Below, in pieces: positions 13,982 through 28,950 of a DNA stretch of 32,000 nucleotides. Both the position numbers and the translations under genes were made by a program. How positions within the stretch are numbered: position 1 is the first letter of the stretch; each line of letters opens with the position of its first letter. Where the stretch lies: positions 300,001 through 332,000 of the forward strand of contig AE017199.1 of NCBI GenBank assembly GCA_000008085.1, written 5' to 3'. Origin of the DNA: Nanoarchaeum equitans Kin4-M (GTDB taxonomy: Archaea > Nanobdellota > Nanobdellia > Nanobdellales > Nanoarchaeaceae). The notes under the pieces were generated by a model, which saw only the letters and a list, made by a program, of their open reading frames with translations, was not told the DNA's origin and ran no database searches.

Positions 13982-14698
13982 ATGGGTAAGGTTAGACTAT
14001 TAGTACAAAGAAGGGGTAGAGGTTCTCCAACATTTAGAAGCCCAACCCATAGAGCTGCTGGAAAAGTTAAAATACCAACCTTTGATGGGGATTTAGTAAA
14101 AGGAAAAGTTGTTGCTTTGATTAAGGATTCTATCCATTATGCTCCATTGATGGTTGTAAAATGGGAAAACGGAGCCCAATCATTATTGCCAGCCCCATTG
14201 GGAATATCTGTAGGGGATACTGTATACTATGGGAAAGAAGCCCCTAATGCAATAGGTTCAATAAAACCATTAAGCGAAATACCTGAAGGTACTAAAATAT
14301 ATATGTTAGAGAACAACCCAGGAGATGGAGGTAAATTAGTAAGAGCTAGCGGAGATTTCGCTTTATTGGTACAAAAATTAGGAGACAAAGTTATAGTCCA
14401 ATTACCAAGTGGGCAGTTTAAAACACTAAGCGCAAATGCCAGAGCTGTTATTGGTGTAATCGCAGGAGGAGGTAGAAAAGAAAAACCATTCGTTAAAGCT
14501 GGTAATAAATATTATTGGGCTTCCTCTAGAAATAGACATTGGCCTGTAGTCAATGGAGTTAAAAAGAACGCTTCCGACCATCCATTTGGAGGTAAAAGGC
14601 ATTCAAACCATTCCAAGCCATTCACAGTATCTAAATGGGCACCACCAGGAAGGAAAGTTGGTTATATTGGAGCTAGAAAAACGGGTAGAGGGAAGTAG
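13982..14698 (+). CDS. rpl2: ribosomal protein uL2 (L2p/L8e)
   Basis: 238 aa. MGKVRLLVQRRGRGSPTFRSPTHR start and GGGRKEKPFVKAG...HPFGGKRH C-terminus. Confidence 0.95.
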   Translation: MGKVRLLVQRRGRGSPTFRSPTHRAAGKVKIPTFDGDLVKGKVVALIKDSIHYAPLMVVKWENGAQSLLPAPLGISVGDTVYYGKEAPNAIGSIKPLSEIPEGTKIYMLENNPGDGGKLVRASGDFALLVQKLGDKVIVQLPSGQFKTLSANARAVIGVIAGGGRKEKPFVKAGNKYYWASSRNRHWPVVNGVKKNASDHPFGGKRHSNHSKPFTVSKWAPPGRKVGYIGARKTGRGK

Positions 14699-15971
14699 AC
14701 AAAATTTTTGCTATAGAAAACAAATAGCTTTCATTAAAATGGTTTGCTATAAATTGCGCTCCTATGAATTTGTCTATTGGGTATGACATATGTGGGAGCC
14801 CTGCTAAATTAGGAGGTACCGTTAATATATCCATTCTATAAATATTTATAGGTTTTAAGCTTTCCAATTCTTTAAACTTTGGAGGCAATATAGGCATTGT
14901 TGGTGTTAATAGCAAATCGAATTTTTTGAATAATCTTTTATACTCTTCTATAACCTTTTTCCTCCCTATTAGAGCTTTTTCATAGTATTTGCCTTTGAAT
15001 CCTTTGGTTCTTACCAAAGTGCCAACTAATATTCTTCTTTTGGTTTCTTCACAAAATAATTCTCTAGATTCCATATAGAATTCATCATAATGTTTGCCTT
15101 TTGGGTTTACACTATAGCCAAACAATATATTTCCATACCTCGCTAAATTAGTAGAGGCTTCGGCCATGGCTATAATATAATAACTAGCTAAAGCTATATC
15201 AAATAATGGGAACTCTATTTCTTCTATTTTGTATTCTTTTTCCAACTCGCTAACGAAATTGTAAAAAGCCTTTTCTATTTTTTCATCAACATCTACTCTT
15301 ATTACTCCAATAGTGAATTTTTTATCTATATATTTTATAGGCTCTTTCAATCCAACATTTGTTTGATCCCTTGGATCGGGTTTGGCTATTATCTCTAATA
15401 CCTTTTTCATATAATCTATGTTAGTGCCCATTACTCCTATTTTATCTAAAGAATTGGCATAATCTATTAATCCATATCTCGATACTAAACCATAAGTGGG
15501 GGTAATACCAATTACCGAATTAAAAGCTGCAGGATTGGATATAGATCCCCCGGTAGATACAGCTATCGCAACATGGTTATCATATTTTTTATTGAACAAA
15601 GCTGTAAATGCTCCAGCTCCTGAGGAAGAGCCCCCAGCAACCCTATTTGGGTCTAAAGCGTTTCTCGCAACTTTAATACAACTATTTACACCAAAACTAC
15701 CAAAACCAAATTCGTCCATAGCAGTTTTTCCAATAATTAGGGCATTGGCCTTTTTTAATTGTTCGCTAACAAAGGAATCATAGGGAGGGATATAATCTTC
15801 TAACATCTTACTACCAGCAGTAGTTCTAAGGTTTTTTGTAACAATATTATCTTTTATAGTAACAATAAAAGAAGGGTTTTCTATAAGCTCATTATTAAAA
15901 GTAATTATTGAGTTGGTTTTCTCATCTACTTTCTTTGCATATTCCATTATTTGCTCTACATCCATGGGCAT
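14673..15971 (-). CDS. gatA: amidase-signature enzyme, Glu/Asp-tRNA amidotransferase subunit A
   Basis: 432 aa. Amidase signature GGSSSGAGAFTA, upstream TAGSKML Lys. Has a 26-nt convergent overlap with rpl2. Confidence 0.85.
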   Translation of the reverse strand: MPMDVEQIMEYAKKVDEKTNSIITFNNELIENPSFIVTIKDNIVTKNLRTTAGSKMLEDYIPPYDSFVSEQLKKANALIIGKTAMDEFGFGSFGVNSCIKVARNALDPNRVAGGSSSGAGAFTALFNKKYDNHVAIAVSTGGSISNPAAFNSVIGITPTYGLVSRYGLIDYANSLDKIGVMGTNIDYMKKVLEIIAKPDPRDQTNVGLKEPIKYIDKKFTIGVIRVDVDEKIEKAFYNFVSELEKEYKIEEIEFPLFDIALASYYIIAMAEASTNLARYGNILFGYSVNPKGKHYDEFYMESRELFCEETKRRILVGTLVRTKGFKGKYYEKALIGRKKVIEEYKRLFKKFDLLLTPTMPILPPKFKELESLKPINIYRMDILTVPPNLAGLPHMSYPIDKFIGAQFIANHFNESYLFSIAKILSTSLYPFF

Positions 15972-15991
15972 AAATAAGCAAAATATTAAAA

Positions 15992-16045
15992 AATCAGCAG
16001 CGGCAGAAACTCTTCACTAATCATGGCTCAAGACCTTCATCATCC
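15992..16045 (-). ncRNA. C/D box sRNA; D' guide matches tRNA-Leu(CAA) anticodon loop
   Basis: Minus strand reads GG-AUGAUGA-AGGUCUUGAGCC(12)-AUGA-UUA-GUGAAGA-GUUUCUGCCGCUG(13)-CUGA-UUUUUU. TTTTTAAA lies 28 nt upstream. Confidence 0.75.
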
Positions 16046-17150: not shown

Positions 17151-17390
17151 TTATTTCTTTAGATCAACGAACGCTGTATCTCCTTCTTTCGTTACTACTA
17201 TTGTAAATTTGGTTGGTGGTTTTCTTCCACCTCTTTTCCATATGAATTTATTTAGCTCTTGGCTAATTTTTACTATTTTCGCTTTTGTGTGTCTCATTAC
17301 AAACTCTTTTAATGCCTTTACCGCCTTTTTTGTTCTTTTAAACCTAGAAGTAACTAATACAGCTTTTCTTAAATTTACAGTATATTCCAT
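17151..17390 (-). CDS. rpl31e: ribosomal protein eL31 (L31e)
   Basis: 79 aa. RFKRTKKAVKALKEFVMRHTK...ISQELNKFIWKRGGRKPPTKFTIVV matches L31e. Confidence 0.88.
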   Translation of the reverse strand: MEYTVNLRKAVLVTSRFKRTKKAVKALKEFVMRHTKAKIVKISQELNKFIWKRGGRKPPTKFTIVVTKEGDTAFVDLKK

Positions 17391-17693: not shown

Positions 17694-18866
17694 TTATTGA
17701 GTATTTACTTCGGCTTCTCCTTTTACTTCCGCATTTTCATTAGTTAAGTTTTCTAATTCTTTTAGCAATTGTTTTAACATTTGCTTTTGTTTTTCTTTAG
17801 CTTCTTCGAACGCTTTCTTTAATTGCTTATACTCTCTAATTAATTTCAATATTTCTCCTAAAGATTGGGCTTTTTCTATTTTTGCTATTAGGTTTACAAC
17901 TTTTAGCTCTAACTCTGCTTGTAAATTAGCATCTGTAATTTCTATTTTTATGTTAGCGTGCAACTCTAATGTTCTTGCCAACAAAACATCTTTAGCTAAA
18001 GATACTAAATCCTTCATTGCTTCATCTTTACTTTTTAATACTTTCTCTTTTATTTCTTTAATTTTTTTCCTAGCCTCTTCTATTTTGGTTTTAGCATATT
18101 CCTTTATTTCTTCTGGGGGTTTGTCTAATATTTGCTTTAACTCCATTGAAATTTCTAAACTGGCTTTAGCCTCTATCGCTTTTGGCCTATTTTTATAGGA
18201 AGAGTATTCTTTGTATAATTCTTCCCATTTCTTTAATAGTTCTTGGGCCAATTTTTCATTAATTAGAGAGAGTTTCTCTATTTGTGCTTTTAAGGAGAAA
18301 AAGGTAGGATCTAAATATTGACCATGGTATTCTTTTACTAATTTCTCTAACATTTTTAATCTTTTCTTTATCATATTCACAAAATGCTCTACATCTATTA
18401 CTTTTGCTAAATCCTCTGGGTTTTCTATATGCACTTTTCCTTCCCCTTTATTTTCTTCTCTTTCCTTCATTTCATTTTCCTTTTCTTTATTTTCTTTTTC
18501 AGATTCTTCTTCCATTTCATGTTCCTCTTTCTTTAGTTCCTCTATTTCTTCTTCATTATTATCTTCTAATTTTTCTAGCATTGGTTCACATTTTATTATT
18601 TTAGCATTGTGTTGTGATGCATATGTTTTAGCAATACAATCGTTTCCAAAAACTTTTTCTATTTTTTCCCCATTAGGTAATTCTAGTTCACATTTAACTG
18701 GTTTATATACTTGTATGCAATATATTTTTGGTTTCTTTGGTATTGGTATAGTTACATTAATTTCAGCATTTCCCTCGATTTTATTATTATCGCCCTTTAG
18801 TTCGCCTTTTAGCTGTACTGCGGACAATGCTAAAGGTATGGCTAAAACCCAGAATAGCTTTTTCAT
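17694..18866 (-). CDS. secreted or surface coiled-coil protein with signal peptide, 4-Cys N-terminal module and acidic tract
   Basis: 390 aa. Signal-like MKKLFWVLAIPLALSAVQ, Cys module IYCIQVYKPVKCELELPNGEKIEKVFGNDCIAKTYASQHNAKIIKC, acidic EDNNEEEIEELKKEEHEMEEESEKE, then long heptad regions. Confidence 0.6.
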   Translation of the reverse strand: MKKLFWVLAIPLALSAVQLKGELKGDNNKIEGNAEINVTIPIPKKPKIYCIQVYKPVKCELELPNGEKIEKVFGNDCIAKTYASQHNAKIIKCEPMLEKLEDNNEEEIEELKKEEHEMEEESEKENKEKENEMKEREENKGEGKVHIENPEDLAKVIDVEHFVNMIKKRLKMLEKLVKEYHGQYLDPTFFSLKAQIEKLSLINEKLAQELLKKWEELYKEYSSYKNRPKAIEAKASLEISMELKQILDKPPEEIKEYAKTKIEEARKKIKEIKEKVLKSKDEAMKDLVSLAKDVLLARTLELHANIKIEITDANLQAELELKVVNLIAKIEKAQSLGEILKLIREYKQLKKAFEEAKEKQKQMLKQLLKELENLTNENAEVKGEAEVNTQ

Positions 18867-18886
18867 TTTTACTAATATAAACCTAA

Positions 18887-18894
18887 TTTATAAA
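18887..18894 (+). promoter_or_regulatory. TATA box of C/D sRNA 18915-18966
   Basis: TTTATAAA starts 28 nt upstream of 18915. Confidence 0.5.
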
Positions 18895-18914
18895 TAGATG
18901 GTACTACTTTTTAG

Positions 18915-18966
18915 GATGATGTAGGTGGCTTGACTCTGATTAGTGATGAGAGGAGGTGATACTGAT
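18915..18966 (+). ncRNA. C/D box sRNA; D guide complementary to the 16S 3'-terminal anti-SD sequence
   Basis: G-AUGAUGU(C, 1 mismatch)-AGGUGGCUUGACU(13)-CUGA-UUA-GUGAUGA-GAGGAGGUGAUA(12)-CUGA. The 3' part lies antisense to the last 8 codons of the GTPase gene. Confidence 0.7.
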
Positions 18967-19626
18967 AGGGTATTTAACTTTTATTTTTCCATTAACCCAA
19001 AGTGATAATAATCTAACTGCTGTATCTCGTAATGGCATGCGCCATTTTTTGGATAACTTTTCTAAAAATTCATTTTCATCTTTTGCTTCTATATTAAACC
19101 GCTCTTGCAAATCCTCAAAAATTAGTTTTATTAGTTTTAAAGCCACTCTAATAGGGTTGTCAAGCTTCTCTGGGCTGTAAGAGCCTATTAAAGTTAACAA
19201 CTCTTTATCCTTTAGAGTAAAAATCCCAGGAGTGTCTTTTAAATATATTTTATTTGATAGCTTTATTAATTGGATACCTTTAGTTTTCCCTGGTATAGGA
19301 GCTGTACCGGCAACGTGTCTTCCTCTTAAAGCATTAATTAGAGAGCTTTTCCCAGTATTTGGAAAACCTGCAACGCAAACAATTATTTTGTCTTTATTAA
19401 TATTTTTCGCAACCTCTTTTATTTTATTTCTTAATACTCTTAGCCCTTTTCTTGTTCTAGAGGAAACATACACATCACCATATAAACTTAATAACTCTTC
19501 TGCTTCAACCAAATCGGCTTTGTTTAAAACTTTAATTATTATTTTGTTTAGTTTTTCTATTTTTTTGTTTGGAAATGGTATCCTAGCATCCATTACTTCT
19601 AATATTATATCACAATCATCAAACAT
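18940..19626 (-). CDS. circularly permuted GTPase (YlqF/RbgA/Nug-like ribosome biogenesis GTPase)
   Basis: 228 aa. G4 NKADL precedes G1 GFPNTGKSSLINAL and G3 DTPG, which is the permuted motif order. Confidence 0.85.
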   Translation of the reverse strand: MFDDCDIILEVMDARIPFPNKKIEKLNKIIIKVLNKADLVEAEELLSLYGDVYVSSRTRKGLRVLRNKIKEVAKNINKDKIIVCVAGFPNTGKSSLINALRGRHVAGTAPIPGKTKGIQLIKLSNKIYLKDTPGIFTLKDKELLTLIGSYSPEKLDNPIRVALKLIKLIFEDLQERFNIEAKDENEFLEKLSKKWRMPLRDTAVRLLSLWVNGKIKVKYPISITSSHH

Positions 19627-23036: not shown

Positions 23037-23063
23037 TTTTATCTGCAGCTACTCCTTTCATCA

Positions 23064-23609
23064 CTATTCAGATTGTGCTTTCTCTTCATATAGCCATTGC
23101 AATTTGCCTAGCCCTGCTTGTCTCATCGTTAGATTAATCTTTGTACCTATGGGTTTTATACTTATACCAACTATTTTTGCTTTAACTATATCTTCTATCT
23201 TTAGTATCTTTTTAGTTTTTCTACCAGCCAAAACTTTGTCTTTAGAATAATCAACGATATCATCCATTATTTGAGATATATGTATTAAACCATCTGTAGG
23301 CCCAATATTTACATAAGCACCAAAATCGACTATATTTGATATAATTCCCAAGGTTACTTCTTTTAATATGGGTTTCCAGGTTAAAACTTTAAACCTTACT
23401 TTATAATATATTCCTCCATCGTTATAGCCTAAATATCCTTCACTTTTGTCTAAAATATCTAAAATAGATAAAACCCAACCTAATTGTTTATTTATTTTCC
23501 CTTCATATTGCTTTAATAATGCATTTTTAATTGCTTCTTCGATAGTTTTTTCTTTTAAATCCCTTGGATCAACTCTAACATAGTCTTCTACCTCGCTTAT
23601 AAAAAACAT
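23064..23609 (-). CDS. rpo7: RNA polymerase subunit Rpo7 (E')
   Basis: 181 aa. The N-terminal Rpb7-like fold begins MFFISEVEDYVRVDPRDL. S1 domain has GIISNIVDFGAYVNIGPTDGLIHISQI. Confidence 0.9.
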   Translation of the reverse strand: MFFISEVEDYVRVDPRDLKEKTIEEAIKNALLKQYEGKINKQLGWVLSILDILDKSEGYLGYNDGGIYYKVRFKVLTWKPILKEVTLGIISNIVDFGAYVNIGPTDGLIHISQIMDDIVDYSKDKVLAGRKTKKILKIEDIVKAKIVGISIKPIGTKINLTMRQAGLGKLQWLYEEKAQSE

Positions 23610-25370: not shown

Positions 25371-25422
25371 GTGATGAAAGCGTACCCCACTGATTAGTGA
25401 TGTGAGATGCGCGCGGCTGACA
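25371..25422 (+). ncRNA. C/D box sRNA
   Basis: GUGAUGA(25371-77)-AAGCGUACCCCA(12)-CUGA(25390-93)-UUA-GUGAUGU(25397-403)-GAGAUGCGCGCGG(13)-CUGA(25417-20), followed by a T5 run. Forms a GC-rich island in an AT-rich spacer. Confidence 0.8.
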
Positions 25423-25463
25423 CTACTTTTTAGTTACATGTTGTAGGTCAAAGGTGTCCAAAA

Positions 25464-27361: not shown

Positions 27362-27500
27362 GCCGCCGTAGCTCAGCGGTCAGAGCGCCCGGCTCATAGC
27401 ATGGGCTATGAGCTCTGACCCGAAAGGGGATGATCTCGGGGGCTCTTATGCCCCCTCGTGAGAAACCGGGAGGTCGCGGGTTCGAATCCCGCCGGCGGCA
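27362..27500 (+). tRNA. tRNA with anticodon CAU (elongator Met or Ile2) interrupted by a 66-nt intron after nt 37
   Basis: Exon 1 GCCGCCG-UA-GCUC-AGCGGUCA-GAGC-G-CCCGG-CUCAUA. Exon 2 A-CCGGG-AGGUC-GCGGG-UUCGAAU-CCCGC-CGGCGGC-A. The mature loop is CUCAUAA. Confidence 0.9.
27399..27464 (+). other. tRNA intron (canonical 37/38 position)
   Basis: A BHB-compatible drawing exists. The anticodon stem is followed by a 3-nt bulge A27463-A27465 on the 3' strand, a 4-bp helix C27393-A27396 / U27459-G27462, and a bulge U27397-G27399 on the 5' strand. An internal GC hairpin GGGGGC-UCUUAU-GCCCCC lies at 27438-27455. Confidence 0.7.
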
Positions 27501-28224: not shown

Positions 28225-28872
28225 TTATAAATCTATCTCTTCATCTTTATTTAATACAATCGCTTCTACTCCCTTTTCTTCGGCTTTTCTTTTAAATTCG
28301 TATGGATCGGCTTTAATTATTGGCCATGTATTATAATGCATTGGTATAACTATTTTTGGTTTAAGCAAATCTATTGCCTTTAGAGCTTGGTCAATATCCA
28401 TTGTAAATACCCCCCCAATAGGTAACAAAGCAACATCTATTTTAAATAGCTCTCCAATTAGTTCCATATCTTTGAAAACCATTGTATCTCCAGCATGGTA
28501 TATGGTTTTATTTCCCTTAATTACAAACCCTCCAGGATTTCCCAAGGGATAAGCTTTTCCATTGTAATATAAAGTAGAGCTGTGCACTGCAGGCACTAAA
28601 CTAACCTTTTCTCCAATATCTATAGTGCCTCCAAAGTTCATGCCTATGCTTTCTATATTAAATTGCTTAACGAATTCTGCTATTTCATATATAGAAATAA
28701 CTTTGGCATTGTTTTTCTTGGCAATCTCTATAGTATTACCAAAATGGTCATTATGAGCATGCGTTACCAATACATAATCTACTTCAGGTATTGTTTCTAT
28801 GTATGGATCTATTATTAGCCTGTTCTTATGCTCTATAATAAAAGCGCTGTGTCCCATGTATTTGATTTTCAT
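28225..28872 (-). CDS. metallo-beta-lactamase-fold hydrolase (UPF0173 family)
   Basis: 215 aa. MKIKYMGHSAFIIE start, THAHNDHFGN metal motif, and HYNTWP near the C-terminus. Confidence 0.85.
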   Translation of the reverse strand: MKIKYMGHSAFIIEHKNRLIIDPYIETIPEVDYVLVTHAHNDHFGNTIEIAKKNNAKVISIYEIAEFVKQFNIESIGMNFGGTIDIGEKVSLVPAVHSSTLYYNGKAYPLGNPGGFVIKGNKTIYHAGDTMVFKDMELIGELFKIDVALLPIGGVFTMDIDQALKAIDLLKPKIVIPMHYNTWPIIKADPYEFKRKAEEKGVEAIVLNKDEEIDL

Positions 28873-28898
28873 AGAATAGTTATTCTAAACCATTAAAA

Positions 28899-28950
28899 TA
28901 TCTGAGCCTCTGGCATTCATCATTTCTCAGCAACGACAGGACTCTTCACA
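28899..28950 (-). ncRNA. C/D box sRNA candidate with degenerate terminal boxes
   Basis: Minus strand reads GUGAAGA-GUCCUGUCGUUG(12)-CUGA-GAA-AUGAUGA-AUGCCAGAGGCU(12)-CAGA. Both spacers are 12 nt. The internal D'/C' boxes are canonical; terminal C (UGAAGA) and D (CAGA) are variants. Confidence 0.55.

Follow-up and report, generated by a model that had tools for sequence, protein, structure and literature searches.

The sR13 locus and its surroundings

The window, by which we mean the whole stretch of 32,000 nucleotides analysed, covers positions 300,001-332,000 of the Nanoarchaeum equitans Kin4-M genome. Six published RNAs map to it at a constant offset of 300,000 between window and genome coordinates, among them the box C/D sRNA Neq sR13: the 54 nt at 18915-18968 of the forward strand (genome 318915-318968) are identical to the published sRNA13 sequence, GATGATGTAGGTGGCTTGACTCTGATTAGTGATGAGAGGAGGTGATACTGATAG. 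The RNA and its neighbours are arranged as follows.

17154-17390, reverse strand: NEQ364 (eL31), an N. equitans protein
17694-18866, reverse strand: NEQ365, 390 aa with no Pfam family, divergent from sR13, with which it probably shares the TATA box
18887-18894, no strand assigned: TATA box (box A) TTTATAAA, a perfect palindrome read from the sequence
18915-18968, forward strand: mature C/D box sRNA Neq sR13 (sRNA13), 54 nt, placed by identity with the published sequence and by RNA-seq ends
18940-19626, reverse strand: circularly permuted YlqF/YawG-type GTPase, an exact match to NEQ366
18979-18988, forward strand: T-rich stretch TTTTATTTTT, a candidate archaeal oligo-T terminator read from the sequence

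This RNA was predicted by snoscan as sRNA11 in the genome annotation (Waters 2003). Later RNA-seq recovered it as sRNA13: 45,100 reads were recorded, and the RNA runs from 318915 to 318968 (Randau 2012, Additional file 2). The same study gives its genomic context as a leftward NEQ365, a rightward sRNA13 and a leftward NEQ366, and counts it among the few N. equitans sRNAs with a promoter and a terminator of their own and a purine at the 5' end (Randau 2012). The NeqsR13 of Dennis et al. 2015 is also identical to 18915-18968. Sequence, coordinates, strand and targets are the same in all of these reports and in a later study of rRNA methylation, showing that they describe one object (Waters 2003; Randau 2012; Dennis 2015; Seistrup 2017). 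An initial annotation, made from the letters of the DNA, had called a C/D box sRNA at this locus, and the sRNA13 reads of Randau 2012 bear that call out. Its interval, 18887-18966, takes in the promoter and ends one base beyond the D box, whereas the mature RNA occupies 18915-18968. Papers from 2003 to 2017 had already described the RNA with its targets, and the methyl groups, so that the main finding is known; the small additions made here are a palindromic, shared TATA box, the absence of Shine-Dalgarno (SD) motifs in the window and the unconserved tail of the overlapping GTPase.

The TATA box ends 21 nt upstream of the sR13 5' end (18915, forward strand) and, read on the opposite strand, is separated by the same 21 nt from the first base of the NEQ365 start codon, the A at 18866 (reverse strand). 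It probably serves both sR13 and a leaderless NEQ365 mRNA, an arrangement that suggests one bidirectional promoter for an sRNA and a leaderless mRNA. The initial annotation had placed TTTATAAA 28 nt upstream of the RNA, and it does start 28 nt before the 5' end found by RNA-seq. At the other end, the sR13 transcript likely stops at the T-rich stretch TTTTATTTTT, to which we would assign the termination signal reported by Randau 2012.

Other RNAs are spread over the window. Apart from the tRNA gene, each was placed by its published sequence at the offset of 300,000.

15990-16045, reverse strand: sR12, published C/D box sRNA
23041-23094, reverse strand: sR14, published C/D box sRNA
25371-25424, forward strand: sR15, published C/D box sRNA
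27362-27500, forward strand: tRNA gene with a 68-nt intron (Rfam tRNA, 62.6 bits)
27399-27461, forward strand: stable C/D-like tRNA-Met intron RNA
28897-28949, reverse strand: sR16, published C/D box sRNA

The tRNA gene is that of elongator tRNA-Met, whose intron Randau 2012 described as an abundant C/D-like RNA. After the ends of sR12 and sR16, the start codon of the next gene on the same strand follows within about 19-25 nt (genes at 14673-15971 and 28225-28872), with a TATA-like element directly after sR16, and this tight packing of sRNA and gene resembles the sR13 case.

Box architecture and pairing with 16S rRNA

All elements of sR13 lie on the forward strand, and they were located by reading the sequence and by a regex scan.

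18916-18922, forward strand: C box AUGAUGU (ATGATGT), a 6/7 match to RUGAUGA with U, not A, as the last base
18923-18935, forward strand: D' guide AGGUGGCUUGACU (DNA AGGTGGCTTGACT), 13 nt
18936-18939, forward strand: D' box CUGA
18940-18942, forward strand: D'-C' spacer UUA, 3 nt, the complement of the NEQ366 stop codon TAA
18943-18949, forward strand: C' box GUGAUGA, antisense of the codons for ..S-H-H
18950-18961, forward strand: D guide GAGGAGGUGAUA (DNA GAGGAGGTGATA), 12 nt
18962-18965, forward strand: D box CUGA

The succession AUGAUGU, 13 nt, CUGA, UUA, GUGAUGA, 12 nt, CUGA is exactly the one described in the initial annotation, and it has the marks of an archaeal box C/D sRNA, with terminal C and D boxes, internal D' and C' boxes and guide spacers of about 12 nt. 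When the strict layout (18916-18965) was searched for, it matched once in the window, against 0.0 matches per window expected from 300 dinucleotide-based shuffles, and a relaxed form of the regex matched two further known sRNAs where 0.007 were expected. The 10-mer AGGAGGTGAT taken alone is not improbable (one match against 1.7 expected with one mismatch allowed); its significance comes from its placement between the C' box and the D box.

Searches with Rfam at gathering thresholds gave no match other than tRNA anywhere in the window, so that neither sR13 nor sR12, sR14, sR15, sR16 or the tRNA-Met intron RNA reached a gathering score. A permissive search returned sub-threshold matches of sR13 to 13 archaeal C/D families, with scores of 19-27 bits against gathering scores of 42-45, the best being sR2 (26.6 bits, gathering 42) and snoPyro_CD (25.2 bits). 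Thus sR13 is a C/D sRNA by architecture and stands outside every curated Rfam family at threshold. It resembles archaeal box C/D sRNAs in general (for example snoPyro_CD RF00095, sR2 RF01139 and sR1 RF01152) in being compact, about 54 nt, with guides of 12-13 and 12 nt and a 3-nt loop, in lacking a terminal stem and in following the N+5 rule. The guides are species-specific, and this accounts for the low scores. Free sR13 gave no significant secondary structure (z = -1.38), in keeping with a C/D sRNA that lacks a terminal stem. The gene is found on five other contigs, all of them showing 100% identity over 18840-19010, and therefore no covariation could be used.

The N. equitans 16S rRNA 3' sequence was taken from the capture oligo in the Methods of Seistrup et al. 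2017, with its span from the legend to figure 4: the reverse complement of the oligo is 16S 1492-1539 (AAGUCGACACAAGGUAGCCGUAGGGGAACCUGCGGCUGGAUCACCUCC), and position 1540 comes from the text of that paper. The D guide GAGGAGGUGAUA forms 10 contiguous Watson-Crick base pairs with 16S 1531-1540 (AUCACCUCCU; duplex -17.4 kcal/mol), and A1534, which lies opposite the fifth guide nucleotide counted back from the D box, is the position that the N+5 rule designates. For the D' guide AGGUGGCUUGACU, whose target sequence was taken from the published PLEXY context, we found 11 contiguous base pairs with 16S CGUCAAGCCACCC (E. coli numbering 1405-1415; -22.3 kcal/mol) and A1408 at N+5. Both guides thus exceed the pairing of at least 9 bp to rRNA or tRNA, in N+5 register, by which a guide was defined. 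Two other sRNAs speak to the 16S sequence itself. The D' guide of sRNA20 pairs 12/12 with 16S 1526-1537 (N+5 = G1530) and a guide of sRNA18 pairs with 1504-1513 (N+5 = G1508), in agreement with the published map, which independently confirms the 3'-terminal sequence used here.

These pairings coincide with published ones. PLEXY predicted only the D' target, which is 16S position 1373 when numbered for N. equitans (-22.4 kcal/mol, in the context CGUCAmAGCCACCC; Randau 2012). The 5' (D') guide was later described as complementary to 16S 1405-1415, directing methylation of A1408, and the D guide as pairing with 1531-1540 in the anti-SD tail, directing methylation of A1534; both RiboMeth-seq and MALDI-MS, the latter on isolated rRNA fragments, detected Am1408, Am1409 and Am1534 (Seistrup et al., NAR 2017). 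The N+5 rule leaves Am1409 unexplained (Seistrup et al. 2017). The initial annotation had aimed the D guide at the anti-SD tail and, by the N+5 rule, at an A within it, and both statements agree with our re-derived pairing and with Am1534. It had also proposed a comparison with the organism's own 16S 3' end, with about 9 bp as the least acceptable pairing, and the published oligo yields 10. What it overlooked was the D' target, A1408 in the decoding site. We infer that sR13 is the guide responsible for Am1408 and Am1534, its link to both methyl groups resting on complementarity and the N+5 rule.

The prediction of a D' target only, together with the one empty guide found in many archaeal sRNAs, would fit an RNA with a single working guide, D', and an idle or orphan D guide whose match to the anti-SD tail is a matter of chance. 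Ten contiguous base pairs in the correct register make this scarcely credible, as do the detection of Am1534 by two methods and the result that only 8 of 20,000 composition-matched shuffled guides attained 10 bp. We consider it very probable that the locus is the gene for Neq sR13, with its own TATA box and two guides directed to the 16S rRNA 3' end for methylation of A1408 and A1534.

A guide directed to the anti-SD tail raises the matter of how that tail is used, and the window's 34 non-overlapping ORFs with 90 or more codons were scanned for SD complementarity. None had SD complementarity of at least 5 nt upstream of the first ATG, and 22 of the 34 had a TATA-like hexamer starting 24-34 nt before it. 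This pattern points to largely leaderless mRNAs in the window, as the initial annotation had remarked. The one occurrence of GGAGGTGA in 64 kb (both strands) is inside the sR13 guide. The conserved 16S tail is apparently unused for SD pairing by the window genes, and this makes structure or biogenesis the more likely reason for Am1534.

The same scan bears on a reading in which GGAGGUGAU is the SD site of a forward-strand ORF (GTG at 18956, 74 aa) and the boxes have arisen by coincidence. A perfect SD-like 9-mer does stand ahead of this GTG-initiated ORF, but the 74 aa are the antisense of a conserved GTPase, no window gene of the 34 uses SD, chance would yield the complete set of boxes 0.0 times and RNA-seq finds a discrete 54-nt RNA. 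On the box layout, the SD count and the RNA-seq product, both this reading and that of chance motifs were rejected, and we regard them as effectively refuted.

The overlap with the GTPase gene NEQ366

The gene on the opposite strand has Pfam matches to MMR_HSR1 and RsgA_GTPase, and its best NCBIfam match is TIGR03596 YlqF, where it scores 100.7 bits and falls short of the cutoff for the equivalog, 208.2. In an alignment of 16 homologues, NKAD (35-38), the GxxNxGKS P-loop (87-94) and DxPG (131-134) are invariant and follow one another in this order. NKxD ahead of the P-loop and DxPG indicates circular permutation, and judged by its motifs NEQ366 is a member of the permuted GTPase class. This upholds the earlier description of a circularly permuted GTPase; for the ribosome-biogenesis type, YlqF is the candidate family, as the best match with a score below the cutoff.

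Counted from its 3' end, 29 nt of sR13 run antisense to the last nine codons and the stop of NEQ366, and 18940-18984 of the reverse strand translates to IKVKYPISITSSHH followed by the stop TAA, which is the complement of the UUA spacer. The overlap lies where the initial annotation had put it, but with the published 3' end at 18968 its length is 29 nt, not 27. In the alignment of 16 homologues, the conserved core ends at ...GKIKVKYPI. Beyond it the nearest relatives have unrelated acidic tails (ELDYKEENG..., DLEEFTKQ and EIDEDLQKQSD), and more distant homologues end at ...GYWL or ...GYWF. The last seven residues of NEQ366, SITSSHH, were found in none of the aligned homologues. Since the tail and stop of NEQ366 are the antisense of the D box, guide, C' box and loop, the sRNA dictates both and not the reverse. 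A tail constrained by guide and boxes had been proposed from the outset, along with a look at the C-terminal tails of orthologs in relatives without sR13; in the aligned homologues SITSSHH is absent, and other tails or ends stand in its place. The overlap is most simply explained as a by-product of genome compaction.

At its other end (19580-19626, reverse strand), NEQ366 begins some 10-20 residues further in than most of the aligned homologues, with MFDDCDIILEV against M..KKVKEIINKSDIILxV in the homologues, and this start shares 8 nt with the end of NEQ367. NEQ366 seems to have been trimmed at both ends.

Relatives were searched for an sR13-like RNA near the GTPase gene. None was found within up to 10 kb of the gene in three of them (P0004, P0005 and P0006, 59-66% identity), where the neighbourhoods differ from that of N. 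equitans and only sR15-like and sR6-like sRNAs were seen. A search for syntenic loci through eL31 (NEQ364) gave that protein alone. Within the set of relatives examined, the overlap of sR13 with the GTPase gene thus seems to be confined to N. equitans, which agrees with the remark of Randau 2012 that most N. equitans sRNAs overlap mRNAs.

Two C/D sRNAs were observed in uncultured Nanoarchaeum relatives whose GTPases are 59-65% identical (contig L083, 2616-2665, reverse strand; contig L082, 6381-6430, forward strand). Their guides resemble those of Neq sR15 (ACACGTACCCCT / TGGATGCGCGCGG) and the D guide of Neq sR6 (GAAAGGCGGATTG), showing that some guides are conserved though gene order is not.

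A wider search used the pattern TGATGA-N1-5-GGAGGTGATNCTGA plus a D box and gave 58 matches in 185,579 species genomes, nearly all of them bacterial. With these exact boxes and guide, no other convincing C/D sRNA with an anti-SD guide was among the 58. The two archaeal matches (L034 and L058) were rejected as they have no upstream C or D' box. Fifteen matches to the D' guide in metagenomes, mostly in higher-GC DNA and with no upstream C box, were likewise dismissed as chance and not as sR13 orthologues. On present evidence the anti-SD guide in its sR13 form is particular to N. equitans. Known sRNAs share the other half of the RNA: Iho sR56 of Ignicoccus hospitalis has a D' guide directed to 1408 in helix 44, like sR13, but its second guide targets U1380, and the A1408-targeting sRNA of Nanopusillus acidilobi combines a similar D' guide with a second guide to G1508.

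The overlap also invites a different view of the RNA, namely that sR13 acts in cis as an antisense of the NEQ366 mRNA, masking or methylating its 3' end, the match to rRNA being of secondary importance. Complementarity of the D guide is 12/12 with the NEQ366 mRNA (UAUCACCUCCUC) against 10/12 for 16S, and functional links have been speculated upon for the N. equitans sRNAs that overlap mRNAs, as most do (Randau 2012). The 12/12 complementarity follows directly from the overlap, however, as it would automatically for any gene overlapped on the opposite strand, and the rRNA carries methyl groups at exactly the predicted sites. In addition, the GTPase homologues of relatives have no such sRNA within 10 kb, and the pairing is therefore not a conserved module. 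We consider a primarily cis-antisense function very improbable.

A weaker version keeps the rRNA guide function and adds that the sR13 sRNP might also bind or 2'-O-methylate an ACC codon of NEQ366, five before the stop, and so couple GTPase expression to the pool of free sR13. We give this idea little credence. If it were true, expression of a ribosome-assembly factor would be tied through free sR13 to the load of 30S maturation, and a palindromic TATA box co-firing sR13 and the leaderless NEQ365 would add to a small regulatory node.

Proposed role in 30S maturation

In the most likely mechanism, sR13 is transcribed from its own TATA box and would assemble with L7Ae, Nop5 and fibrillarin; fibrillarin is NEQ125 and NOP56 is NEQ342 (Randau 2012), both encoded in the genome outside the window. 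The D' guide pairs with 1405-1415, the top of the 5' strand of helix 44 in the decoding site, and would lead to Am1408 and probably to Am1409 as well, and the D guide pairs with 1531-1540 in the single-stranded anti-Shine-Dalgarno tail and would lead to Am1534. While bound, the sRNP may keep the GC-rich helices 44 and 45 and the 3' tail from folding too early, as hypothesised by Seistrup et al. 2017. Its stepwise release, from the D' site (A1408) and then from the D site (A1534), would time late 30S maturation, and sR13 would be an RNA-based stand-in for the RsmA/Dim1 checkpoint that N. equitans does not have.

The background to this hypothesis is that N. equitans is without RsmA/Dim1, A1518 and A1519 being unmethylated, and that its helices 44 and 45 are GC-rich, with stable tetraloops, and would fold fast (Seistrup et al. 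2017). Hypothetically, then, sR13 delays the folding of helices 44 and 45 and replaces the RsmA/Dim1 checkpoint. The chaperone or masking RNA suggested in the initial annotation is essentially this same hypothesis.

A simpler account is that sR13 is a methylation guide only, whose methyl groups stabilise the decoding site and the 3' tail at 80-100 C, with no role in timing and none as a chaperone. The methyl groups at both sites are the sole thing directly shown, hyperthermophiles are as a rule heavy methylators of rRNA, and the host I. hospitalis has RsmA yet is methylated at 1408, 1409 and 1533. The missing RsmA/Dim1 and the GC-rich helices 44 and 45 with their stable tetraloops count against this account, as does the overlap of the sR13, sR20 and sR25 footprints on the last ~17 nt of 16S, which implies ordered, mutually exclusive binding. 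We regard the guide-only account as a serious possibility, somewhat short of an even chance.

The delayed-folding hypothesis has a counterpart in the RsmA/KsgA/Dim1 checkpoint, which like the proposed function of sR13 acts late on helices 44 and 45 and gates the entry of the subunit into translation. The two differ in that RsmA/KsgA/Dim1 is a protein enzyme that makes m6,2A1518/1519, whereas sR13 is an RNA guide for Am1408 and Am1534, and their equivalence is hypothetical. A second comparison is with U3 and U14, the eukaryotic chaperone snoRNAs, which are box C/D RNAs that pair with pre-18S rRNA and control its folding and processing; U3 is much larger than sR13 and is non-methylating. In contrast to these, sR13 is a canonical methylation guide with a putative chaperone role.

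As a reading of sequence made without tools, the initial annotation recovered a real, experimentally validated guide RNA, its target nucleotide and the published functional hypothesis, and its value is that of a positive control. For N. equitans, the interest of the biology lies in an anti-SD tail that is methylated where the window shows no SD use and where the RsmA/Dim1 checkpoint, otherwise universal, is absent.
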